A stretch of 42,951 nt of DNA from an uncultured bacterium (GCA_964538495.1 CAZIEA010000004.1:4262-47212); one strand, 5' to 3'. Shown: positions 11,595 to 42,095, counted from the stretch's first letter. The notes: generated by a model not told the origin, from the letters alone. Numbers and translations: made by a program.

Positions 11595-11831
11595 TTCACA
11601 TGTAGACATGTAGGGCATGTAGAAAATCAAATGCTGTCCACAGATTTCACAGATTTAAACTTCATGTTCTTCATGTCCTTCATGGTGAGAAAAGCAGGCT
11701 GAAGGAACTCACACCCCATACCCCATGCCTCATACCCCATTACACGGATTACTGATTACGGATTACGTTTGGTTTTCCTGATTCCTGACTCCTGTTTCCC
11801 GACCCTATGCTCTATGCCCTATGCTCTATGC
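11595..11831. repeat. mosaic of short tandem word repeats in the divergent intergenic region
   Basis: In order: CATGTAG x3 block (11595-11626), CACAGATTT x2 (11635-11656), TTCATGTYC x3 (11660-11685), GGCTGAAG, CATACCCC-type x3 (11712-11740), GGATTAC/TGATTAC x3 (11744-11767), TCCTGAY x3 (11775-11794), CTATGCYC x4 (11803-11831). The same words recur in at least 14 other intergenic regions of this window. Confidence 0.9.
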
Positions 11832-11884: not shown

Positions 11885-13513
11885 ATGACCGGCCAAACCG
11901 AAAAGACCGTCTCGCCGCTGGATTCCGCCAGCCTGGATATACTCAAGTTCATCCTGGCGCTGCTGCTGGTGGTGCTGGCCTGGGTGGGTTATTACGCCCG
12001 CCACTACGAGGGGCTGTCCCTGATAGATTCCCTGGACACCGCTCAGGTCGCCCAGAACCTGGCCCAGGGCCGGGGTTTCGTCAGCAATTTTCTCCGCCCG
12101 GTGACGCTGGCGGCTTTTCCGGGAACCGGACCTCTCCCGGATTTCTATAATCCCCCGGCCCAGGTCCTTCTTCTGGGGGGGCTTTTCCGCCTCTTCGGGG
12201 CCCGGGGCCTGGTCGTGATCGGCTCCTCCCTGGTCTGGGGGTTGCTGGGGGCCCTGGGGGTTTTCGCCCTGGCTTGGCGTCGTCTCGGCTATCGCTGGGG
12301 CTTGCTCGCGCTGTTGCTCGTCGGCCTGGCCCCGGGAACGATCGAGATTTCCTTTTCCGGGCTCGGGGTCGCCTTTTCCGGGTTGCTTCTGCTGATTTTT
12401 TTCTCCCTCCTGGCCCGGGAAAGCCGGCCGGGGGCCGTCATCCTGGCTGCCTTGGGGGCAACCTGGGGGCTGCTGGCCCTGAACGATTTTGTTTTCGCCG
12501 TTCTCTCCCCCCTGGCTGTTTTTTTAATCTGGCGGCCGGACCGGGACCGGAAGTCAGCCGGGATTTTCGCCCTGGCGGCCTTCCTGGTTGTCCTCCCCTG
12601 GCTGCTCCGGAACCTGCTGGTCGCCGGAAATCCCCTGGCGTCCCTGCGCTGGGCGGAGTTCTATTCCTGGACCAGGAGCCTGCCCGGGAACCGGGTTTTC
12701 CGCGACCCGGCCTGGGCGGCGGGGATGGTCTCGCCCGGGGAGATCCCGGAAAAGTTTCTGGTCTTCGGGCGGCTGATGAACCCCTACTGGGTCGCCCTGG
12801 GCGGGCTCCCGGTCTTGGGGCTTTACCTGCTTTCCCTCTTCGTCTCCCCCCGTCCCGGTCGCTTCGGGCAGGCTTCCCGGCTGGTGGGCCTGCTGCTGGC
12901 GGTGGCTTCGGTCAAGGTCGTCCTTTTCGACCCCAACTCCTTCGGGAGCCTGCTGGCGTTTTACCCGGTCCTGGCCCTGGCGGCGCTGGATTTTCTCGCC
13001 TCCCGGCTTCCGGTTGCCGCCCCTTTCCGCCGCCGGAAAAGAGCCGCGGTGTCGGCGGCCGTGTTAGCCGCGGTCTGCCTGCCCGGCCTGGCTTCCGCCT
13101 ATCTTGGCCTGGGGGAGGGCCGGTATTTTCCTCCCGTCCTGGACCGGGCCGCCCGGGAAAACCTTGCCGCCGGATCGGTTTCCCGGAGCATCCGGGAGCT
13201 GGTCAAGCCCGACGAGACCGTGATCTCAGATTCTCCCTGGGTTGTGGCCTGGTTCACGGGGCGATCTTCCCTCTGGATCCCTTGGGAACTTTCCCAGGTC
13301 CGGGAACTGAGGGAGCAGCGGCCCTTGCTTGACTTCCTTCACCTTACCCCGATGATTCATCGCTATCCCCCCGGGGAGAGCCCCGGCCCCTGGCAGGAAA
13401 TCTACTCCTCCGGCCGGGTTCCGGCCTGGCTTGGCTTCGAGAAGGGGATCATCCTGCCCGGGCAGGAGACGCTCCTGGGTTCCCGCGTCTTCGAGCGCCT
13501 TGACCTCGAGTAG
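11885..13513 (+). CDS. GT-C fold polytopic membrane glycosyltransferase (ArnT/PMT-like)
   Basis: 542 aa with many TM helices. N-terminal loop DSLDTAQVAQNLAQGRGF...PDFYNPPAQVLLLGGLFRLFG resembles the first periplasmic loop motif of GT-C enzymes. Family assigned by eye only. Confidence 0.7.
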   Translation: MTGQTEKTVSPLDSASLDILKFILALLLVVLAWVGYYARHYEGLSLIDSLDTAQVAQNLAQGRGFVSNFLRPVTLAAFPGTGPLPDFYNPPAQVLLLGGLFRLFGARGLVVIGSSLVWGLLGALGVFALAWRRLGYRWGLLALLLVGLAPGTIEISFSGLGVAFSGLLLLIFFSLLARESRPGAVILAALGATWGLLALNDFVFAVLSPLAVFLIWRPDRDRKSAGIFALAAFLVVLPWLLRNLLVAGNPLASLRWAEFYSWTRSLPGNRVFRDPAWAAGMVSPGEIPEKFLVFGRLMNPYWVALGGLPVLGLYLLSLFVSPRPGRFGQASRLVGLLLAVASVKVVLFDPNSFGSLLAFYPVLALAALDFLASRLPVAAPFRRRKRAAVSAAVLAAVCLPGLASAYLGLGEGRYFPPVLDRAARENLAAGSVSRSIRELVKPDETVISDSPWVVAWFTGRSSLWIPWELSQVRELREQRPLLDFLHLTPMIHRYPPGESPGPWQEIYSSGRVPAWLGFEKGIILPGQETLLGSRVFERLDLE

Positions 13514-13522
13514 GCGCTACGG

Positions 13523-13566
13523 TTCACATGTAGGCATGTAGAGCATGTAGCGCAACTACATGTGAA
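13523..13566. repeat. palindromic CATGTAG block just after the stop codon
   Basis: TTCACATGTAG-22 nt-CTACATGTGAA, with perfect 11-bp arms. Starts 10 nt after the stop at 13511-13513. Confidence 0.85.
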
Positions 13567-15125: not shown

Positions 15126-15280
15126 GCGGATCGCCGTTCCTACGGAACGGCTTGCAGTATCGTCACTCCTGGCGGAGTGACTTGCAGGATCGTCTCGACT
15201 GCGTCGAGACTTGTAGTATCGTCCCTCGCCTTGCTCGGGACTTGCGGTATCGCCGCTCCCTTGAGGGGAGCGGCTTGCAA
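15126..15280 (+). repeat. hairpin-unit array 1 (5 units, forward orientation)
   Basis: Units of 29-30 nt: head TTGYRGTATC followed by GCCGTTCC-tac-GGAACGGC, GTCACTCC-tggc-GGAGTGAC, GTCTCGAC-tgc-GTCGAGAC, GTCCC..GGGAC and GCCGCTCCC-ttga-GGGGAGCGGC. Begins 6 nt after the stop at 15120. Confidence 0.9.
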
Positions 15281-15330: not shown

Positions 15331-15566
15331 ATTCACATGTAGACATGTAGGACATGTAGAAAGGCTGAAGATTTTTTTCACAGTTTAACCGCGAATCCAA
15401 GGGCCACGGATCACGGATCACTGATTACGGATTACGATTTTCCCTGAACCCTGAACCCTGTATCCTGGGTTTCGACGGATTACGGATCACTGATTACGGA
15501 TTACGATTTTTCCTGAACCCAGACCCCTGAACGCAACCTACATGTTCTACATGTCTACATGTGAAT
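15331..15566. repeat. MITE-like 236-bp unit bounded by 29-nt inverted CATGTAG blocks
   Basis: ATTCACATGTAGACATGTAGGACATGTAG (15331-15359) matches the reverse complement of 15538-15566 at 28 of 29 positions. The interior holds only word repeats (GGCTGAAG, GGATYAC x8, CCTGAAC x4) and has no coding capacity. Confidence 0.8.
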
Positions 15567-15577
15567 AGGCGACGCGG

Positions 15578-17239
15578 ATGGTAGAGCCGATCACAATGAC
15601 GATCCGGAGCACGGCCCGGAGCTATCTCGAGGTCGTGTTCCACCGCAAGATGCTGATCGTGATCCCGGTCATCTTCGGGACCCTGATCGCCTGGGGCTAC
15701 AGCTTCACGGTCGCCCCGATGTATCAAAGTTCGGCCATCATCCAGGTGGCGGAAAAAGCCCGGGAAAACCCCTTCATCAAGGGCGCGGCCATGTCCACCC
15801 CCCTCTCCGCCCGGATCGGGGCCGTCATCCAGATGGTGAAAAGCCGCAACACCATCGAGGAGGTAATCAAGGAACTGGACTTGGCCCGCAATATCCGGAG
15901 TCCGGGGGAATATAATCGTCTGGTCAACGATCTCCGCGCCAACATCACGGTAAGTATCCGCCGCGATAATTTCATCGAGGTCTCCTGCTCCTACCCCACC
16001 GCCCAGGAAACCCGGGACATCGTCAACTCCATCACCCGCAAGATCATCAAACAGAACCTGGAGAGCCAGGAACTCGAAACCGAAACGGGCATCGAATATC
16101 TTAACAACGAGATTGAACTCTATAAACGCAAGCTGGAGGAAAACGAGGATCAGATTCAGAAATTCCGCGAAGCCAACGCGGAATATCTCCCGGAAGAGCT
16201 TTCCACCAGGATCTACAATACCTTGACCTGGACCGATCCCTATTCCGGAGAAGAGCAAGCCCCTCCTTTCAATGAGGAAGCGCTCCGCCGGACCGATCCC
16301 GGCGGCGTGTTGGGATTTCAGGCCCGCTACCAGAGTTACAGCACTGCTCTTCTCAACCAGGGCCGCGAATTGAAGTCCATGCAGAAGAAACGCGCCTCCC
16401 TGATCGGCCAGATGGAGGGTGAGGATGAGTTCGTCCTCACCCAGCGGGTCAGCGAGACCAGCCCGGTGATCCGGAGCCTGCGGGGGGAACTGACCCAGAA
16501 GCAGATCGAGCTGGCCCGGCTCAAGGTGGACGCCACCGAGGACCATCCCATGGTCCAGCGCCTGACCCGGGAAATCTCCAACATTCAGGATTCCATCCGG
16601 TCGGCGGCCGAGCAGTCGGTCCGGGAAGAGACCACCGCGCTCAACCCCATCTACCAGGCGATCCGGATGGAGTTGAGCCGGATAGATTCCGATATCGAGT
16701 CCCTCAAAGAGCAGATCGAGATCACCTCGCAGATGGCCGACGAGGCCTTCCTCCGTCTCCAGCAGGTTCCCCAGATCCAGAAAGAGATCACTCGCTTGCA
16801 GAGGGAATCCGCCATCCTGAGCCAGAGATACACCAATTTGATCGCCGCTCGGGAAAGGGCCTATATTTCCCGGCGGCTGGAACTCCAGGAGCGGGGGACC
16901 AAATTCAACATCATCGACGACGCTCAGGTCCCGCTCAAGCCTTTCAAGCCCAACCGCGGCTTGATCGTGATCGCCGGTTTTTTCGCCGGCTTGGTCCTGG
17001 GCGGGGCCCTGGTGGTCCTGGCCGAGGTGACCGATCACTCCTTCGAGGAGGCCAACCAGCTCCGGGAGTTCCTCCCCGTGCCCATGCTGGGGGCGGTGAG
17101 CCAGATCGTCACCCCGGAAGAGAAGGCTTTCGTTGCCGCGAAAAAGCGGCTGGGGTTCCTGGGCCTGGGCATTTTCGTGGTCCTGGTGGTTCTGGTGGCC
17201 ATCGTGGTCATGATCTTCGGACCCGGGGGGCAGGGATGA
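15578..17239 (+). CDS. polysaccharide co-polymerase / chain-length determinant (Wzz/GumC-type, PCP)
   Basis: 553 aa. N-terminal TM after SYLEVVFHRKMLIVIPVIFGTLIAWGYSF, a long coiled-coil periplasmic region, and C-terminal TM helices. Its stop overlaps the next start (ATGA at 17236-17239). Confidence 0.85.
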   Translation: MVEPITMTIRSTARSYLEVVFHRKMLIVIPVIFGTLIAWGYSFTVAPMYQSSAIIQVAEKARENPFIKGAAMSTPLSARIGAVIQMVKSRNTIEEVIKELDLARNIRSPGEYNRLVNDLRANITVSIRRDNFIEVSCSYPTAQETRDIVNSITRKIIKQNLESQELETETGIEYLNNEIELYKRKLEENEDQIQKFREANAEYLPEELSTRIYNTLTWTDPYSGEEQAPPFNEEALRRTDPGGVLGFQARYQSYSTALLNQGRELKSMQKKRASLIGQMEGEDEFVLTQRVSETSPVIRSLRGELTQKQIELARLKVDATEDHPMVQRLTREISNIQDSIRSAAEQSVREETTALNPIYQAIRMELSRIDSDIESLKEQIEITSQMADEAFLRLQQVPQIQKEITRLQRESAILSQRYTNLIAARERAYISRRLELQERGTKFNIIDDAQVPLKPFKPNRGLIVIAGFFAGLVLGGALVVLAEVTDHSFEEANQLREFLPVPMLGAVSQIVTPEEKAFVAAKKRLGFLGLGIFVVLVVLVAIVVMIFGPGGQG

Positions 17240-20957: not shown

Positions 20958-21761
20958 ATGGACCAGTTATCCGAGTTGGAAAGCAAGAGCATCTACATTA
21001 TCCGGGAGGCCTACTACCAGTTCAAGGACATCGCGGCCCTCTGGTCGATCGGGAAGGATTCCACCACCCTGATCCACCTCTGCCGCAAGGCCTTTTACGG
21101 GGAAGTCCCCTTCCCGATGATGCACATCGACACCGGCTACAAGTTCCCGGAGATGTACCGTTTTCGGGACGAATACGCCAAGAAGTGGGGGATCCGGCTG
21201 ATCGTGACCCGCAACGAGGAGGCGATTGCCGCCGGGATGGGCCCTAACGTGGGGGAGAAGCTCGCCTGCTGCAACCAGCTCAAGACCAACGCCCTGAAAC
21301 TGGGGATCGCCAAGCACGGTTTCAAGGCTTTGCTCCTGGGCATCCGGCGCGACGAGCACGGGATCCGGGCCAAGGAGCGCTATTTCTCCCCCCGCAACGA
21401 GCAGTTTCAGTGGGACTACGAGAACCAGCCCCCGGAGCTCTGGGACCAGTACAAGTCCAAGGCCGCCGACGAGGAGCACATCCGGGTCCACCCTCTCCTG
21501 CACTGGACCGAGCTCAATATCTGGGAATACGTGAAACGGGAGAATCTGCCCATCACCGAGCTCTACTTCGCCAAAAACGGCAAGCGCTTCCGCTCCATCG
21601 GCTGCGTGCCCTGCTGCTCCCCGGTGGAATCCGAGGCCGACACCATCGACAAGATCATCGAGGAACTCAAGACCACCAAGGTCTCCGAGCGCGCCGGCCG
21701 CGCCCAGGACAAGGAGTCGGTGACGACCATGCAAAAACTCCGGGCCCTCGGCTACATGTAA
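20958..21761 (+). CDS. cysD: sulfate adenylyltransferase subunit 2
   Basis: Start trimmed to the ATG at 20958 (GGGAGA 8 nt upstream). The track's N-terminal extension runs through array 4. PP-loop WSIGKDSTTL and C-terminal ERAGRAQDKE...MQKLRALGYM. Confidence 0.9.
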   Translation: MDQLSELESKSIYIIREAYYQFKDIAALWSIGKDSTTLIHLCRKAFYGEVPFPMMHIDTGYKFPEMYRFRDEYAKKWGIRLIVTRNEEAIAAGMGPNVGEKLACCNQLKTNALKLGIAKHGFKALLLGIRRDEHGIRAKERYFSPRNEQFQWDYENQPPELWDQYKSKAADEEHIRVHPLLHWTELNIWEYVKRENLPITELYFAKNGKRFRSIGCVPCCSPVESEADTIDKIIEELKTTKVSERAGRAQDKESVTTMQKLRALGYM

Positions 21762-21813
21762 CCGCGTAACCACATAACCACTAATCTCGCTAATCCTCGC
21801 TAAAGGGAAAGCG

Positions 21814-22218
21814 ATGTGTCTACTGTATAAAGAGGAGGTGTACAAGCTAATCGGTGCGGCCATGGAAGTTTATAACTTGCTGGGCAATGGGTTCTTGGAA
21901 TCCGTGTACCAGGAAGCTTTGGAATATGAGTTGGATTTGAGAGGAATCCCTTATAAAGCCCAAGAGATGTTGCAGATCAAGTATAAGGACAAGATGCTTG
22001 AACATGCCTATAAGGCGGATCTGGTTCTTATGGATAAAATTATCGTGGAATTGAAAGCTATGGAAAAATTAGGCAGGAATGAGAAGGCGCAGATCATTAA
22101 TTATCTCAAGGCAACCAACCTTGAATTAGGGGTGTTGATAAATTTTGGGGCTAAGAACGATCTCGAATGGAAGAGAATGATATTGTCAAAAAACATGCCG
22201 TTAGAACCGGAAGTATAG
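21814..22218 (+). CDS. GxxExxY protein (PD-(D/E)XK nuclease-like small protein)
   Basis: LGNGFLESVYQEALEYEL...YKADLVLMDKIIVELKAME...AQIINYLKATNLELGVLINFG carries the GxxExxY motif and a D..ExK core. Clearly AT-richer than the flanking cysD and cysN. Confidence 0.8.
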   Translation: MCLLYKEEVYKLIGAAMEVYNLLGNGFLESVYQEALEYELDLRGIPYKAQEMLQIKYKDKMLEHAYKADLVLMDKIIVELKAMEKLGRNEKAQIINYLKATNLELGVLINFGAKNDLEWKRMILSKNMPLEPEV

Positions 22219-22290
22219 ATTGGTGCAGATTTGCGAGATTGGCGGTTAAAAAGCGGCGAGAAAAACCATAAAAATTAGCGGAGAAAAATC

Positions 22291-24859: not shown

Positions 24860-25116
24860 TATCGTCCCTCGCCTTGCTCGGAACTTGCCGCATCGCCGCG
24901 CCTCCCGGCGCGGCTTGCATCCCTATGCTCTATGCCCTATGCTTAAAAACTACAGGCTGAAGACTGAAGACTGAAGGCTGAAGGAACCGACGCCGCATTT
25001 CACATGTAGGCATGTAGGACATGTAGGTAAATTCGAAATTCAAATCCCCGAAACTCTCGCGCATTCTGGATTCTGAATTCTGACTCCTGACTCCTGTTTT
25101 TAAAAACCCTGAACCC
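24823..25116. repeat. hairpin array 3 (3 units, forward) followed by a word mosaic
   Basis: Hairpins GACCCTCG..CTCGGGAC, GTCCC..GGAAC and GCCGCGCC-tccc-GGCGCGGC. Then CTATGCYC x3, GRCTGAAG x4, a CATGTAG x3 block (24998-27), TTCGAAAT words, TYCTGA x5 and CCTGAAC. Confidence 0.9.
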
Positions 25117-29777: not shown

Positions 29778-29950
29778 CATAGAGCATAGGGCATAGAGCA
29801 TGTTCTACATGCCTACATGTGAATGGCGGCAAGCCGCTCCGGAGGAGCGGCGATACTACAAGTCCCGAGCACAGCGAGGGACGATACTACAAGCCGCTTC
29901 GTAGAAGCGGCGATACTGCAAGTCACTCCGTCAGGAGTGACGATACGACA
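29774..29950 (-). repeat. reverse CTATGC block, reverse CATGTAG block and hairpin array 5 (4 units, reverse)
   Basis: GCATAGRG x3 (29777-29798) and CTACATG x3 (29799-29824). Then GCCGCTCC-gga-GGAGCGGC, GTCCCGAG..CGAGGGAC, GCCGCTTC-gta-GAAGCGGC and GTCACTCC-gtca-GGAGTGAC, each followed by GATACKRCAAG. Confidence 0.9.
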
Positions 29951-32259: not shown

Positions 32260-33819
32260 GTGGGGAAACTGACCCGCTACTTCTTTGCTCCACTATTATT
32301 CGACATGAGACCACAGAATATAATTTTTCGTATTATTCCTGTCGCCGTCGTAATGTTTGGGGCTCTCTTAGTGCCCCGCTGTACTCAAAAAATACTATAC
32401 TTTGTCAGCTCTGATGGATCGATCGCGGACACGACAAAACTTTTAATATCGCTCATCGGGGCTTGTTGTATAGCGGGTGGAGTTATTTTATGGTTTGCCT
32501 TGGTCAAGACGGATGTCTTTAGAGGGATTATAGAAAAAATATATCATGCTATCGGAATGCCCGGTAAAACATCCTGGGCCGCGGCAATATTTATTTCGGC
32601 TTTTCTCTTGCGCTTGGTGTGGGTTTTGGCCTTGCCTCTGAGACAGGTTTCCGATTTCGCCGAATACGATGCGATAAGTTGGCAGTTGGCGTCGGGGACG
32701 AGCATAATGTCTCCTGAAATCACCGCCGGCCGGCCCCCGGGTTATCCGTTTTTCCTTTCATTGATTTATCGTGTATCCGGGCACAATCAAATGCCGGCGA
32801 AAATTGCCAATTGTTTTCTGGGGGCGATCTTGTGCATTGCGACCTATGCGCTCATAAGGGAAATTTCCGGCGAGCGCCTGGCGCGGATTACGTCGCTATT
32901 GACGGTAGTGCATCCGACGCTTGTCCTGAGCGTGACAATGCTCGCGACGGAGCATCTGTTCGCGCCGTTGTTGCTGGCGGCGCTATGGCTGTATGTCCGG
33001 TCCTGGAGGGATGATTCGTTTACGGCATTGCTCGCCAGTGCGGCCGTTATGGGGATCGCGTGCCTGGTGAGGCCGTCAATATATTTATTGCCGATAGCAT
33101 TGGCGCTATGGGTATTTGTGTGTTTGAAAAGCAGCGCTTCGAGGATATTCCTCAAGTCCCTCATTTTCCTGGCAATCTATGGGTTGGTCATATTCCCGTG
33201 GCAATGGCGAAATCAGAGAATCTTCGGCAACTGGGGAATTATGGGGACAAATATGGGGGTGGCGTTTTATTTCAGCGTTACGCCGGATTTTAATGAATTC
33301 GTTCGCTTTACGGAGAAAACCAGTGCCGAATCCGCCAACGAGTACGAAGCCGACAGGGTAATATTCCGACGGGGTCTGGAGGTGGCGAAGAGTGATCCGG
33401 GATATTATCTGAAGAAGTTGGCATTTTGGAGATTTCGCCGCACGTTTATAAGTCCCCCCGAGTGGCTGTGCGAATATAATCTACAAGATACCGGTTGGAG
33501 CCGGGAAAAAGCGGCCGTGGCCTACGGAATGATATTGGTTGGATCGGGAGCGGTCCACGGAATTGTCTCAATCCTGGCTCTAGTTGGAGCTATTGCGGGT
33601 TGGCGGCGGAGCAAGTATAACTCGATGCTTCTGCTGTTTGTGGCTTACCACGCGGCTTTGCTGATAGTATCCCCCGGTTCGCCTCGCTATAGGTATCCTT
33701 TAGTGCCCATATACTGTTACTTTGCCGTGCTTGGCCTGAAGTGGACGATTGAGCGATTAAGGTCACGGGAGACGCGAAAAAACGGGCCTTGGCTTTTGAA
33801 GGAGAACCGAGATGATTAA
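32260..33819 (+). CDS. GT-C fold glycosyltransferase (PMT_2/ArnT-like)
   Basis: LRQVSDFAEYDAISWQLASG...GRPPGYPFFLSLIYRVSG...AKIANCFLGAI resembles the ArnT/PMT_2 family loop. Polytopic. GTG start at 32260, or ATG at 32305. Lies in a visibly lower-GC segment. Confidence 0.75.
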   Translation: MGKLTRYFFAPLLFDMRPQNIIFRIIPVAVVMFGALLVPRCTQKILYFVSSDGSIADTTKLLISLIGACCIAGGVILWFALVKTDVFRGIIEKIYHAIGMPGKTSWAAAIFISAFLLRLVWVLALPLRQVSDFAEYDAISWQLASGTSIMSPEITAGRPPGYPFFLSLIYRVSGHNQMPAKIANCFLGAILCIATYALIREISGERLARITSLLTVVHPTLVLSVTMLATEHLFAPLLLAALWLYVRSWRDDSFTALLASAAVMGIACLVRPSIYLLPIALALWVFVCLKSSASRIFLKSLIFLAIYGLVIFPWQWRNQRIFGNWGIMGTNMGVAFYFSVTPDFNEFVRFTEKTSAESANEYEADRVIFRRGLEVAKSDPGYYLKKLAFWRFRRTFISPPEWLCEYNLQDTGWSREKAAVAYGMILVGSGAVHGIVSILALVGAIAGWRRSKYNSMLLLFVAYHAALLIVSPGSPRYRYPLVPIYCYFAVLGLKWTIERLRSRETRKNGPWLLKENRDD

Positions 33820-36443: not shown

Positions 36444-37277
36444 ATGAGGAACTGGAGATATGCCGCCGGGCGCCTTTTCCCCACCGTTCGAGGCTTTGTC
36501 CGGTGCATTGTTCGCTCTCCCCGGATTGCCCGGCAGGTTTTTTCCGCCTCCCTTCATTACGCCCTGACCGGGCGGATGTCCTCTGCGGTCGTCGTCGAGA
36601 AAGGCTACCGTATCGAAGACCCCAAGGAGCTGGTGGGTTACTTGGCCCACTTTGTCGAGGAAGAGGTCGAAGCCCGGGAATGGCTTATCCCTTTCCGACG
36701 GGCCCAAGCCCCTGTCTGCCTGGACGTGGGCGGCCACGCGGGCATCTTTTCCCTCAAACTGCTTTGCGAGAACCCGGCCGCGCTGGTTTATGCCTTCGAG
36801 CCCCAGCCCGACCTCGCCCGCAAGGCTTCCCAGGCTCTTGCTTCCGAAAGCTCCAGGTATCGCTGTTTCCCCCTGGCCGTCTCCGACGCGCCCGGGAAGA
36901 CCAGGCTTTACCGGGATTCGATAGACAACTCCCAGGCCAGCCTGGAACGGAGCTGGCGGCCGGAAGCGGAGGAGGTCCTGGAAGTCGAGACGGTTACGCT
37001 CGACGCGGCGGCCGCCGACCTGGGGAACATATTTCTTCTGAAAATAGATGTCGAGGGGCACGAGGCCAGGGTTTTAGCGGGGGGGAAGGGAACCCTGAAG
37101 CGCACCCGTTTCGTCCTGGTGGAGATACTTTCGGAAGAAAGTCTGCGCCGCTGCCGGTCCATTTTAGGACCCGGGTGGAAGGAGAAAAAGATCGGGCGGG
37201 GGGATTATCTTTTCGAGGCCAAAACGACTGTCGTATCGTCACTCCCGGCGGAGAGCAATTCACATGTAGGCATGTAG
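36444..37277 (+). CDS. FkbM family methyltransferase
   Basis: CLDVGGHAGIFSL...AFEPQP...KIDVEGHEARVL. The last ~17 codons (TTVVSSLPAESNSHVGM) are a degenerate hairpin unit plus a CATGTAG block, and the TAG stop at 37275-37277 is inside that block. Confidence 0.8.
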   Translation: MRNWRYAAGRLFPTVRGFVRCIVRSPRIARQVFSASLHYALTGRMSSAVVVEKGYRIEDPKELVGYLAHFVEEEVEAREWLIPFRRAQAPVCLDVGGHAGIFSLKLLCENPAALVYAFEPQPDLARKASQALASESSRYRCFPLAVSDAPGKTRLYRDSIDNSQASLERSWRPEAEEVLEVETVTLDAAAADLGNIFLLKIDVEGHEARVLAGGKGTLKRTRFVLVEILSEESLRRCRSILGPGWKEKKIGRGDYLFEAKTTVVSSLPAESNSHVGM

Positions 37278-37665
37278 AACATGTAGAAAGGCAAATTCGA
37301 AATCAGAATGACGAAATTCGAAACCGCGTGGTCGTTGTCGTGTTTCGGCATAGAGCATAGGGCATAGGGACGCAACTCCAGGCTGAAGGAACTGCCGCTG
37401 CATTCACATGTAGACATGTAGGGCATGTAGAAAACCAAGAGCATTTTCACGCAAAGACGCAAAGACGCCAAGGAACGGATCGTTCACCAACCTTTTTGCT
37501 CTTGGCGACGGGTTCTGCAAGCCGCGACGACAGGAGCGGCGATACGACAAGTCCCTAGGCGAAGCCGAGGGACGATACTACAAGTTCCGAGCGGAGCGAG
37601 GAACGATACTGCAAGTCATTCCGCAGGAATGACGATACGGCAGTTTTGTTCTGAACCCTGAACCC
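37217..37665. repeat. large repeat mosaic between the FkbM gene and the wecB 3' end
   Basis: Degenerate hairpin unit, CATGTAG block (37259-86), TTCGAAA words, reverse CGACAA and CTATGC words, GGCTGAAGG, 74-nt composite module (37402-37475), ~100-nt module (37448-37550, about 85% identical to 41867-41967), hairpin array 6 (4 units, reverse, 37515-37633), and CCTGAAC x2. Confidence 0.9.
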
Positions 37666-37670
37666 TTCCC

Positions 37671-38735
37671 TTATCCCATATAGCTTTTGATAATTTCCAC
37701 GATGGCCGCCGCGGCTTGCCCGTCGCCGAAGACTGGTTCCGGCGGGGCAGGGGGTTTGGGCAGACGCAGGGCTTGAGCAATCCGCTCCGGGTCCGCCCCG
37801 GCCAGGACGTTCCAGCCCCTCTCGAGCGTCTCCACCCACTCGGTCTCCTCCCGCAGGGTGACGCAGGGCACGCCGAGCAGGTAGGCTTCCTTCTGCACCC
37901 CGCCGGAATCGGTCAGGATCCGGGCGGCGTTCTCCTCCAGCAGGAGCATTTCCAGGTAGCCGCAGGGGGGGACCGGCCGGATGTTGGGGCCCGGTTTCCG
38001 GCCTGACTTGACCAGGGCCGCGGCCGTCCGGGGATGGGCCGGGAAGATGACCGGCAGGTCCGCCCCTTCCAGGGCCCCCAGGATGGCGTTCATTCGCTCG
38101 GGGTCGTCGGTGTTGCCGGCCCGGTGGATCGTGAGTAGGTAGTAACTCCCGCATTCAAGCCCGAACCGGGCGAGGATATCCGCCTTTCCCGCCGCTCTCC
38201 GTCGGCAGCGCAGCAGGATATCGAGCATTACGTCCCCGGTCAGATTGACCCCCTTTACGATCCCTTCCCGCCGGAGGTTTCCCACGGCGGTTTCGGTGGG
38301 GCAGAAGAGCAGCGCCGAGACCTCGTCGGCCAGGACGCGGTTGATCTCCTCGGGCATCTCCCGGTTGAAGCTGCGCAGCCCGGCCTCCACGTGCCCGACG
38401 GGGATATGGAGCTTGGCGGCCGCGAGCGAACCGGCCAGGGTGGAGTTGGTGTCGCCGTAAACCAGGACCAGGTCAGGGGATTCCTCTTCCAAAACTTCCT
38501 CGATCGCCGCCAGCATCCGCCCGGTCTGGAAACCGTGGGAGCCTGAGCCGATGCCGAGGTTGCGGTCGGGCTCCGGGATTTCCAGTTCCCGGAAGAAGAC
38601 CGAAGACATGGCGTCGTCGTAGTGCTGGCCGGTATGAACGAGGATTTCCCGGAAACTTTTGCGCAGCTCTCGGCTGAGGGCGGCGGCCTTGACGAACTGG
38701 GGCCTCGCCCCCACGATCGAGCAGATCTTTTTCAT
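37671..38735 (-). CDS. wecB: UDP-N-acetylglucosamine 2-epimerase (non-hydrolysing)
   Basis: MKKICSIVGARPQFVK...HTGQHYD...YGDTNSTLAG...HVEAGLRSFN. This is the only minus-strand gene in the 11.9-43 kb cluster. Confidence 0.9.
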   Translation of the reverse strand: MKKICSIVGARPQFVKAAALSRELRKSFREILVHTGQHYDDAMSSVFFRELEIPEPDRNLGIGSGSHGFQTGRMLAAIEEVLEEESPDLVLVYGDTNSTLAGSLAAAKLHIPVGHVEAGLRSFNREMPEEINRVLADEVSALLFCPTETAVGNLRREGIVKGVNLTGDVMLDILLRCRRRAAGKADILARFGLECGSYYLLTIHRAGNTDDPERMNAILGALEGADLPVIFPAHPRTAAALVKSGRKPGPNIRPVPPCGYLEMLLLEENAARILTDSGGVQKEAYLLGVPCVTLREETEWVETLERGWNVLAGADPERIAQALRLPKPPAPPEPVFGDGQAAAAIVEIIKSYMG

Positions 38736-38749
38736 CGCTGCTTACCGCT

Positions 38750-38902
38750 ATTCACATGTAGACATGTAGGGCATGTAGAAAACCAAGAGCATTTTCACGC
38801 AAAGGCGCAAAGACGCCAAGGAAAACCAATTTGTCCACAGATTGCACAGATTTTACCTTCATGTTCTTCATGCTCTTCATGGTGAGAAAAGGTAGGCTGA
38901 AG
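38750..38902. repeat. 74-nt composite module followed by a 71-nt module
   Basis: 38750-38823 matches 37402-37475 at 73 of 74 positions (CATGTAG x3 + AACCAAGAGCATTTTCAC + GCAAAGRC x2 + GCCAAGGAA). 38832-38902 is about 90% identical to 11635-11704 (CACAGATT x2, TTCATGYYC x3, GGTGAGAAAAG, GGCTGAAG). Confidence 0.9.
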
Positions 38903-40744: not shown

Positions 40745-41052
40745 TTCGAGTTTCGGGGATTCGAACTTCGAATTTCATTTTAGGACTTATAAGACCCATA
40801 GGACATATACGACCCAGAGGATGGCGCCTTGCCACTCTGTGCTATGCTCTATGCCTGAACCCGGAGCCTCGGCGCTTGACGCTATGCGCTCTGCGCTGCG
40901 CCGATTACGACCACGACCACGAATTAATCCGTGAACGAATCGGTTTTTCTTTGCGTCTTTGCGTCTTTGCGCCTTTGCGTGAAAATGCTCTTGGTTTTCT
41001 ACATGCCCTACATGTCTACATGTGAACACGAGTGGCAGGGCTGAAGCCCTGC
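40745..41052. repeat. repeat mosaic with the inverted copy of the 74-nt composite module
   Basis: TTCGAA words, ATAGGAC/ATAAGAC/ATACGAC words, CTATGC words, GATTACGACCACGACCACGA, CTTTGCGY x4 plus reverse CATGTAG x3 (40950-41026, an inverted copy of 38750-38823 with one extra GCAAAGAC unit), and hairpin GCAGGGC-tgaa-GCCCTGC (41035-41052). Confidence 0.9.
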
Positions 41053-41064
41053 GCTACGACTGAA

Positions 41065-41784
41065 ATGAAACCGCTGGTCCTGATCCCCACTTATAACGAG
41101 GCCGCCAACATCGCCGAGGTGGTCCGCGGAATCCGCGCGGCTTGCCCGGAGGCGGAAGTCCTGGTGGCCGACGACGATTCTCCCGACCGCACCTGGGAGA
41201 TCGTGGAGAAACTCGCCGCCACCGACCCCCGGATCCATCTCCTGCGCCGGATCGGGGACCGGGGCCGGGGCAGGGCGGGCCGGGACGGCTTTCTCTGGGC
41301 GCTGAAAAACGGGTTCGACCGCGTGATCGAGATGGACGGGGATGGGTCCCACCCGCCCGAGGTCCTGCCCCGGCTGCTGGAAGCCTCCGAACACTACGAC
41401 GCGGTCATCGGTTCGCGCTACCTGCCCGGGGGCGGGTCGCTCCGCCAGGGGAAGCACCGGGACCTGATCAGTTCCCTGGCCCGCCGCTATTTGCGGCTCG
41501 TTCTGGGGGTGAAGGTGAGCGACCCCACCTCCGGGTTGCGGCTTTTCCGCGCCTCCGCCCTGGAGGCCATAGACGTCCGTTCGCTCCGGAGCCGCGATCC
41601 CTTTATCGTGACCGAGGTGCTTTACCGCTGCCAGAGGGCGGGCTTGCGGATCGGGGAGGTCCCCTTCGTCTTTCGCGACCGGCTGGCCGGGGAATCCAAA
41701 CTCGGCGGCGGGGGGCTGGTGAAATACCTCTTCCCTGTGCTGAAATTAAGGTTTTCCCGGTTGGATTCACATGTAGACATGTAG
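41065..41784 (+). CDS. family 2 glycosyltransferase, polyprenol monophosphomannose synthase-like
   Basis: Start trimmed to the ATG at 41065. MKPLVLIPTYNEAANI...VLVADDDSPDRTW...RGRGRAGRDGF...EMDGDGSHPP. The C-terminal SHVDM and the TAG stop (41782-41784) lie in a CATGTAG block. Confidence 0.85.
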   Translation: MKPLVLIPTYNEAANIAEVVRGIRAACPEAEVLVADDDSPDRTWEIVEKLAATDPRIHLLRRIGDRGRGRAGRDGFLWALKNGFDRVIEMDGDGSHPPEVLPRLLEASEHYDAVIGSRYLPGGGSLRQGKHRDLISSLARRYLRLVLGVKVSDPTSGLRLFRASALEAIDVRSLRSRDPFIVTEVLYRCQRAGLRIGEVPFVFRDRLAGESKLGGGGLVKYLFPVLKLRFSRLDSHVDM

Positions 41785-42095
41785 GGCATGTAGAAGGGTT
41801 CAGGGTTCGGGGTTCAGGCGCGAAGCGGGGTCGGGATCGGGATCGGTATCGGGCGCGCGTAAGCATCACGCAAAGACGCAGCGACGCCAAGGAACGGATC
41901 GTTCACCAACCTTTTTGCTTTTAGCGGCGGGTTTTGCAAGCCGCTTTCGAAGGAGCGGCGATACCAGGTGCCAAAAAGACGCGCCTCCTGACTCCTGAAT
42001 CCTGACTCCTGTATCCTGGGCTTCCGGACTCTATGCTCTATGCCCTATGCTCTATGCCATAGCCTGAACCCTGAACCCTGAACCCTGAGAACTCC
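41765..42095. repeat. repeat mosaic
   Basis: CATGTAG x3 (41765-41793), reverse CCTGAAC words (GGTTCAGG x3), GGGATCG x3-4, ~100-nt module (41867-41967) ending in a single reverse hairpin unit, TCCTGAY x4, CTATGCYC x4, CCTGAAC x3. Confidence 0.9.

Follow-up and report, generated by a model that had tools for sequence, protein, structure and literature searches.

The inverted pair at 15331-15566

The window examined here is a stretch of 42,951 nucleotides from an uncultured bacterium (GCA_964538495.1, CAZIEA010000004.1:4262-47212), in which a block of three CATGTAG words recurs and forms an inverted pair at 15331-15566. In this species the block is probably a GxxExxY nuclease-cassette arm that was amplified without the accompanying gene. 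The left arm of the pair (15331..15359, plus strand) consists of an ATTCA prefix and three CATGTAG words with spacers A and GA, and has the prefix-outside, words-inward layout seen in the arms of GxxExxY cassettes. The right arm (15538..15566, minus strand) is the inverted block with spacers A and AA. The left block, ATTCACATGTAGACATGTAGGACATGTAG, and the reverse complement of the right one, ATTCACATGTAGACATGTAGAACATGTAG, agree at 28 of 29 positions with the sole mismatch in a spacer and have 178 bp between them, as an earlier sequence-only reading had described. The interior (15360..15537) is gene-free and made of other word arrays, namely GGCTGAAG (15363-15370), CGGATYAC (15406-15437 and 15476-15505) and CCTGAAC (15443-15461 and 15511-15531). 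As RNA, the pair is predicted to form a 29-bp stem between the arms (-88.7 kcal/mol, z -8.15). The outer end of the right arm lies 11 nt ahead of a start codon at 15578, and the spacer holding the pair measures 458 nt here versus 140-380 nt, with other words, in four related genera.

In the window, CATGTAGRCATGTAGRRCATGTAG is matched exactly ten times, versus none in 100 dinucleotide shuffles, at 11599, 13527, 15336, 25003, 37263, 37407, 38755 and 41770 (forward) and at 15538 and 40999 (reverse). Of the 11 triple blocks counted in the sequence-only reading, ten are thus exact while the eleventh (29799, reverse) is decayed, its third word being CATGCTC.

GxxExxY cassettes in the genome

The genome of the window (G000) is a metagenome bin of 2.69 Mb in 330 contigs (62% G+C, 85% complete), for which our own rough gene calls, based on open reading frames (ORFs), are approximate. 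One of its 11 inward-facing CATGTAG pairs (G000:C10:30160-30637) encloses a 123-codon gene (G000:C10:30194-30565) whose product matches TIGR04256 GxxExxY (E 1.6e-43) and PF13366 of the PD-(D/E)XK superfamily (E 2.3e-42). There are three PF13366 genes in this genome, each between inverted word-triple arrays and each inside an operon with which it is co-oriented. Besides the cassette with CATGTAG x3 and CTACATG x3 arms at C10:30160-30637, one with CATGAAG x3 and CTTCATG x3 arms occupies C10:4482-4914, and the third lies in the window itself. Its GxxExxY gene (PF13366/TIGR04256; 21814..22218, plus strand) sits within a polysaccharide/sulfate operon and has TAACCNC and TAATCYCGC arrays on the left and their complements on the right (flanks about 21750-22260, with TAACCGCG/TAACCACA/TAATCTCGC left and GCGAGATT/GCGGTTA right).

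The definition of a GxxExxY arm-gene-arm cassette used here is a working one made in this analysis, and no published description of such a cassette was found. The CATGTAG block has the layout of such an arm, with ATTCA followed by CATGTAG x3 and spacers of 1 and 2 nt, and at C10:30160-30637 the inverted arms face inward and lie about 0-50 nt from the PF13366 gene. The unit at 15331-15566 has the arms and the inward orientation of a cassette and no gene. In 28 family members the predicted catalytic residues D67 and K79 are invariant and E77 is nearly so (D...ExK motif); no solved structure related to the GxxExxY protein was found by sequence.

Short PF05635 genes in this genome are likewise bracketed, by inverted CGGATTAC, ACAGGAG or hairpin-unit arrays. 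As both GxxExxY and PF05635 genes are bracketed by words that populate the spacers, the vocabulary of spacer words is largely that of cassette arms, and the context in which GGCTGAAG precedes CATGTAG is thus two arms of different cassette types side by side.

Cassettes in other genomes

PF13366 genes were found in 28 of 41 related genomes with up to 15 copies each, some with stop codons. Their bracketing inverted arms were assessed in a sample of 30 genes drawn from 28 genomes of the phylum, taking the highest-scoring inverted repeat formed by the upstream and downstream flanks (220 nt each); at 25 genes it beat all of 100 shuffles. By eye, the arms consist of an outer prefix (TTCAC, GAAC, TTAC) and two to four tandem words pointing inward, among them CGCAAAG, CACAGAG, CGCAGAG, CACGAAG, CACGGAG, CACCAAG, CGGATT..., CCGCGGATT, ACAGGAT and CACGGATT. 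The distance from the end of an upstream arm to the start codon is 0-30 nt, and its words terminate in GAG, GGAG or GAAG. The same arm design was seen at 52 of the 74 metagenome loci with enough flank, which were found with a single protein query and encode proteins 45-66% identical to the CATGTAG-cassette protein.

Mapping of arm words on a 64-protein maximum-likelihood tree required 31 changes, compared to a mean of 45.2 after shuffling, and this value was reached in none of 200 shuffles. The sister proteins L029 (CATGAAG) and L031 (CACGAAG), grouped with support 99/85, differ by one base in all six words of their arms, which implies that the words of both arms change in concert. Together with the clustering of arm words on the protein tree, these concerted changes indicate that arm and gene are inherited as one unit. 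The CATGTAG-cassette protein itself falls into a clade with CATGAAG, CACGAAG and CACAGAG arms.

The operon site of the CATGTAG-armed GxxExxY gene is occupied differently in related genera. G001, a genome of the same family, has at the orthologous site (G001:C3, about 750-1500 of the locus) a GxxExxY gene that is decayed and truncated and has arms of the CGCAAAG type; next to it comes a PF05635 gene for a four-helix-bundle protein, flanked by inverted GGCTGAAG arrays. G005:C1 has just the PF05635 gene with long GGCTGAAG arms, and G003 holds remnants. This is presence/absence polymorphism of the kind for which the sequence-only reading had suggested comparing strains, as related genera hold different cassettes at one orthologous site.

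Copy number and anatomy of the block

Genome-wide, there are 446 CATGTAG triple blocks, of which 377 have spacers of 1,2 nt and an ATTCA prefix and 69 have spacers of 2,2 nt and a TTCAAC or ATTCAC prefix. Two-word arrays number 139, and arrays of four or more words do not occur in this genome. In total, 1,809 CATGTAG words are present versus about 206 expected from base composition, and CATGTAG is the most frequent triple word in the genome, followed by CATGAAG, CCTGAAC and CACAGATT. In an unbiased search allowing up to seven mismatches, each base of words 1 and 2 was kept in 340-341 of 341 copies and the ATTCA prefix was conserved at 96-98%, while the three spacer positions varied in 27%, 13% and 35% of copies, nearly always among purines. 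Spacer states are near-independent of one another and of the downstream module.

The block repeats its word three times in direct orientation, with a period of 8-9 nt and without self-complementarity; tight inverted forms account for nine of 778 arrays. Its typical context reads (GGCTGAAG)n-GGAAC-GCCGCCGC-ATTCA-[block]-AAAACC..., followed by CGCAAAG-type words. The sister block CATGAAG (x3, spacers 2,2, prefix TCAC) has about 209-210 copies, and no mixed blocks were found among the 446 pure CATGTAG and 209 pure CATGAAG blocks.

By the rough calls, 408 blocks are wholly intergenic, 32 overlap a gene end and six lie inside a gene, so that 99% are outside genes. At least one block is present in about 19% of spacers, and tandem (18.5%), divergent (20.2%) and convergent (15.7%) spacers are occupied alike. 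In co-directional gene pairs, 174 blocks are co-oriented with the genes and 63 are opposed, which fits CATGTAG serving mainly as an upstream arm.

Pairing and tandem units

Neighboring CATGTAG blocks less than 600 bp apart form 82 direct, 11 inward-facing and one outward-facing pair. A genome-wide preference for inverted pairs, for which the sequence-only reading had suggested a test, is not seen (82 direct versus 12 inverted). What stands of its terminal inverted array is that CATGTAG blocks do bracket the GxxExxY gene and that inverted pairs face inward 11:1; inverted pairing as such is not the rule. The interiors of the 11 inward-facing pairs are mutually unrelated, and the pairs are flanked by the usual upstream module, inverted. 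The expected target-site duplications are missing, as none flanks these 11 pairs and direct repeats flanking 66 arm-gene-arm loci were not above control.

The direct pairs stem from macro-units of 126-219 bp in tandem, at least 98% identical and each starting at a CATGTAG block, with the last block of a series leading into different sequence. These are recent local amplifications, and since they are bounded by blocks they fit unequal recombination between blocks. Macro-units repeated 2-4x at G000:C12:7830-8504, C53:4635-4978 and C30:10279-10554 have lengthened spacers to about 1 kb.

Where a CATGTAG and a CATGAAG block lie less than 300 nt apart, they are inverted in 185 cases and co-oriented in five. 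An inverted CATGWAG array follows within 300 nt downstream of 158 of the 446 CATGTAG blocks, making the CATGAAG arm the most frequent inverted partner of the CATGTAG arm. A selected hairpin between the two was considered and rejected, because their pairing is weak in predicted RNA folds (z -1.8 to -2.1) and the spacers of paired blocks do not co-vary (p 0.85, 0.59).

Other features of the window

The block at 11595..11622 (plus) has an inverted CATGAAG block 37 nt downstream; this triple block of the sister family (11660..11684, minus) corresponds to G000:C4:15921-15945. At 13523..13566 (plus), 10 nt past a stop codon at 13513, a CATGTAG block is followed 5 nt on by a single inverted word, and the palindrome TTCACATGTAG...CTACATGTGAA with 11-bp perfect arms reported there was confirmed; a tight palindrome of this type occurs once genome-wide. 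A block with the prefix ATTTCA (24998..25026, plus) has a GGCTGAAG array ahead of it. The decayed copy (29799..29824, minus) retains intact words at 29805-29819 together with TGAAT. Further pattern matches are the blocks at 37259..37286 (plus) and 40999..41027 (minus). The block at 37403..37430 (plus) is preceded by GGCTGAAGGAACTGCCGCTGC, the most frequent upstream context, and that at 38751..38778 (plus), with its outer end 15 nt from the start codon of the minus-strand gene 37671-38735, is followed by an inverted CATGAAG block at 38857-38881. The last block (41766..41793, plus) overlaps the end of the ORF 41032-41784.

The segment 32001-36000 has a G+C content of 0.51-0.54 versus about 0.61 and a strong positive GC skew, and the ORF 32260-33819 in this low-G+C stretch was missed by a codon-based gene caller. 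No Rfam family matched in the window.

Several roles proposed for the words found no support. The GTAG that the blocks were said to share with the head of the hairpin units is present in one of five heads in the 15126-15280 array, the others being GCAG, GCAG, GCGG and GCAA, and the tetranucleotide is over-represented in this genome at large (observed/expected 1.8 in coding DNA), which counts against the idea of a shared recognition. An ATG-TAG start-stop pair is equally unsupported, as the sister block CATGAAG has no stop. Nor are the blocks promoter or terminator signals: no sigma-70-like or terminator-like site coincides with any block, two promoter-like sites lie beyond the chains and beside genes, and occupancy is alike across spacer types. 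A restriction-modification footprint was rejected because neither CATG (observed/expected 1.06) nor ACATGT (1.23) is depleted in coding DNA.

Distribution and origin

The phylum is probably Auribacterota, PUNC01 clade (PMC12057145). Of 79 genomes compared within it, this one holds 446 CATGTAG triples, four of the same order hold one or two each and the rest hold none, from which we infer a recent burst of the CATGTAG arm in this lineage. CATGAAG blocks number 210 here, 69 in G001, ten in G013 and two to three in three other genomes; CATGAAG is thus both older and wider. Probably, the CATGTAG arm derived from the CATGAAG type, with the 2,2-spacer class as the intermediate form.

A block identical over 24-28 nt is shared by other families of the order and by an Acidobacteriota genome. 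The exact block was found once each in metagenome-assembled genomes (MAGs) labelled Acidobacteriota, Halioglobus, Desulfobacteraceae and Competibacteraceae. In the Acidobacteriota MAG, four tandem CATGTAG words, 24 nt and an inverted set CTACATGGCCTACATGCCCGACATG form a gene-free arrangement at about 44194-44290 of a 320-kb contig. The last 180 nt of the 23.6-kb contig JAWOHQ010000351.1 of a Candidatus Competibacteraceae MAG are a chain of CATGTAG, CCTGAAC, CGGATTAC and CTTCATG, 95-97% identical to chains here. The genes of that contig are unrelated (27-33% amino-acid identity) and the block is the only one in the MAG; transfer, contamination or a chimeric contig end are possible. The contig CALNZV010000005.1, labelled "uncultured Desulfobacteraceae", shares synteny with G000:C3:46-56 kb (50-58% amino-acid identity) and has both TTCA-CATGTAG and GGCTGAAG words; it is probably a mislabelled relative of this lineage. 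The Halioglobus contig with the block is 2 kb long. Given the Competibacteraceae contig end, this short contig and the syntenic "Desulfobacteraceae", just the Acidobacteriota case is clean for cross-phylum spread.

A phage vector was rejected, as no CATGTAG block was found in viral contigs. No second assembly of the species was found by exact-protein look-up.

Comparison with known systems

Among described elements, the 23S rRNA intervening sequence with an ORF comes closest (PMC4990558). In Leptospira and Coxiella this is a selfish insert of 400-500 bp with one small gene (S23p, a four-helix bundle, PF05635) and inverted arms. Like the cassettes here, it lies inside a transcription unit with arms able to pair in the transcript (PMC4990558), and the likeness extends to the PF05635 genes of this lineage, which sit in the same kind of cassette and also at the orthologous operon site of the CATGTAG cassette. 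Unlike intervening sequences, all copies seen here are between protein-coding genes and not in rRNA helix 25 or 45 (the window holds no rRNA), the cargo of the CATGTAG and CATGAAG cassettes is a predicted PD-(D/E)XK nuclease, the arms are three phased 7-nt words, and arms have multiplied without a gene to hundreds of copies.

Repetitive extragenic palindromes (REPs), their doublets (REPINs) with REP-associated tyrosine transposases (RAYTs), and bacterial interspersed mosaic elements share with the CATGTAG blocks that a short intergenic repeat occurs in hundreds of copies, often as inverted doublets, with a single-copy enzyme gene flanked by the repeat and with mosaics that follow fixed orientation rules. 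Unlike REPs and REPINs, the CATGTAG block is not a palindrome and its GTAG is not a conserved 5' hairpin head, and the associated gene is PD-(D/E)XK and not Y1. The two Y1_Tnp genes of this genome (PF01797, IS200/RAYT-like), at G000:C43:9500-10450 and G000:C46:640-1680, are each flanked by a palindrome of their own (CCGGGGACACAATAC...GTATTGTGTCCCCGG and GAGACTAAAAATGC...GCATTTTTAGTCTC, respectively) and are separate repeat-enzyme pairs. As both palindromes are unrelated to the CATGTAG blocks, a RAYT link was rejected.

The heptamers known as short tandemly repeated repetitive (STRR) sequences in heterocystous cyanobacteria were reportedly described by Mazel et al. in 1990. Heptamer arrays of unknown function have been described in Beggiatoaceae (TAACTGA), cyanobacteria and Bacteroidetes (PMC4679880), and Geobacter metallireducens carries heptanucleotide repeats with the word MTYCTGA (PMC2700814); neither paper links the arrays to a gene. 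Common to STRR, TAACTGA and Geobacter arrays and to the words here are intergenic 7-nt words in 2-6 copies, distant phyla, no known vector and unknown function. The Geobacter word is literally present in the window, where an array at 25063-25096 (ATTCTGG ATTCTGA ATTCTGA CTCCTGA CTCCTG) fits the consensus. The CATGTAG block differs in its fixed 1-2-nt spacers, three copies and conserved prefix, and in having a demonstrable partner gene, while those papers make no link to GxxExxY or PF05635. Unlike the head-to-tail STRR heptamers of variable number, it has a period of 8-9 nt and three or two copies, never four or more.

Alternative explanations

Miniature inverted-repeat transposable elements (MITEs) resemble the pair at 15331-15566 in being short and non-coding with terminal inverted repeats and in having a related gene-bearing element with the same ends. 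A classic MITE, that is, a non-autonomous transposon with its transposase elsewhere and with target-site duplications, would account for the 28/29 repeats, the length of 236 bp and the absence of an ORF, to which extent the MITE-like description in the sequence-only reading holds, and ten more inward-facing pairs exist in the genome. However, target-site duplications are absent, no transposase gene was found with CATGTAG-block ends, the sole Y1 transposase genes (C43, C46) have their own, different palindromes, and viral contigs hold no match to the block. The unit is single-copy, with other matches partial (65-80% identity) and just modules recurring, and single arms and direct tandems (82 direct versus 12 inverted pairs) dominate. 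Occurring once, with unrelated interiors among the inward-facing pairs and without flanking direct repeats, it is not a multi-copy MITE, yet the 11:1 inward preference still called for an explanation. The MITE reading is thus largely refuted, and we give it hardly any credence; it is refined rather than upheld. An element with the same ends exists (C10:30160-30637) and encodes a predicted PD-(D/E)XK nuclease. Only slightly less improbable is a functionless, slippage-born microsatellite of the STRR type, unlinked to any gene. It would fit a short tandem repeat in non-coding DNA, and heptamer arrays are known in cyanobacteria, Beggiatoaceae and Geobacter, but arrays consist without exception of three words (446) or two (139), the spacer lengths are fixed at 1 and 2 nt, the ATTCA prefix is conserved, the orientation relative to CATGAAG blocks is strict, and the identical block recurs in other families of the order and in Acidobacteriota.

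An explanation that we regard as unlikely, although less so than the others in this section, is that the blocks are cis-elements of the host, phased sites for a protein that binds DNA or RNA (a global regulator, a nucleoid protein or an RNA binder of the cold-shock/S1 type), into whose palindromic pairs nuclease genes home, so that the "arms" would be split targets. Near-invariant words with variable spacers have the classic look of binding sites, blocks exceed genes by more than 400 to 1, and tight gene-free inverted pairs (13523-13566, C20:8434-8528 and C24:11488-11568) may be empty targets. Moreover, comparable heptamer arrays in Geobacter metallireducens carry an annotation as putative sites of a global regulator (PMC2700814), and those in Beggiatoaceae were assigned a putative post-transcriptional role (PMC4679880). 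A regulon would not be expected to show near-equal occupancy of tandem, divergent and convergent spacers or different words in the orthologous spacer of four related genera; 446 copies versus 0-2 in relatives resemble a burst and not a conserved regulatory system, and the arm word follows the cargo-protein tree across unrelated hosts. It is quite improbable that the blocks act mainly in RNA, with RNase III trimming paired-arm stems and thereby insulating the operon, the purine-rich upstream arm serving as ribosome-binding site of the cargo and single arms being leftovers. The three cassettes inside operons, the predicted 29-bp stem, the orientation bias of 174 to 63, the position and GAG, GGAG or GAAG word ends of upstream arms and the precedent of the Coxiella intervening sequence (PMC4990558) speak for such a role. 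Against it, most blocks are without an inverted partner of the same word, CATGTAG/CATGAAG pairing leaves a U-U mismatch in each word, and no co-variation links the spacers of the CATGTAG block to those of its CATGAAG partner. In addition, one in four blocks between co-directional genes points the opposite way, and blocks are present in 32 convergent spacers.

A model of gene-less cassette arms

These considerations leave the CATGTAG block as, probably, the arm of a GxxExxY cassette. The data establish the architecture of the cassettes and its recurrence, the co-inheritance of arm word and protein, the turnover of cassettes at an orthologous site and an intact D...ExK motif. In the proposed model, a cassette comprises two inverted arms with words inward around a GxxExxY gene (PF13366, predicted PD-(D/E)XK fold, about 125 aa), each arm being an outer prefix TTCA/TTCAC and three 7-nt words with 1-2 purines between them. 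One gene-bearing CATGTAG copy would have survived while the arm multiplied to at least 446 copies without the gene, as single arms, as inward pairs such as 15331-15566, often with an inverted CATGAAG arm, and in tandem units of 126-219 bp. Other spacer words (GGCTGAAG, CGGATTAC, ACAGGAG, CGCAAAG and hairpin units) would be arms of sister GxxExxY and PF05635 cassettes. The nuclease would read the three phased words of each arm and drive arm copying with or without the gene, recombination between arms would bring about local amplification, and paired arms in operon transcripts would form a long, trimmable double-stranded RNA stem as in 23S rRNA intervening sequences. A nuclease-driven spread of arms is much less probable than the assignment of the block as an arm.

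Several points weigh against this interpretation. Just one pair among 446 blocks carries the gene, whose product is a putative reader of the arms. Target-site duplications are missing, and the unique 236-bp unit gives no sign of having moved as one piece or of ever having held a gene. CATGTAG arms were found at none of 104 sampled family loci outside this genome, so the link rests on one local cassette and on the likeness to CATGAAG and CACGAAG arms. The cassette gene could also have homed into pre-existing host sites; arm and target look the same at sequence level. Finally, the gene calls are crude and the bin is fragmented and 85% complete, with a block within 100 nt of a contig end in 43 of the 330 contigs, which implies that the true copy number is above 446.

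More generally, and tentatively, GxxExxY (PF13366) nucleases may be the mobilizing enzymes of transposase-less elements found across phyla, with a lineage-specific 7-nt word x3 per inverted arm and with gene-less arms as non-autonomous forms amplified in trans. To our knowledge, reports of 7-nt words in short tandem arrays between bacterial genes go back to 1990 without an explanation, and no function is known for the large GxxExxY and four-helix-bundle protein families. The present genome is an extreme case, with one word block in a fifth of its spacers and a surviving gene-bearing copy, so that the link is directly testable. Should it fail, the blocks would be striking, near-invariant protein-binding sites whose binder is worth finding. 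Should it hold, it would represent a repeat-plus-enzyme system parallel to REP/RAYT and built on a different enzyme, and would explain the poor assembly and unusually long spacers of such genomes. If the general proposal is true, together with PF05635 cassettes, it would explain the origin of intergenic heptamer arrays such as STRR, TAACTGA and the Geobacter "regulator sites", and would give a role to a very large protein family for which none is known.

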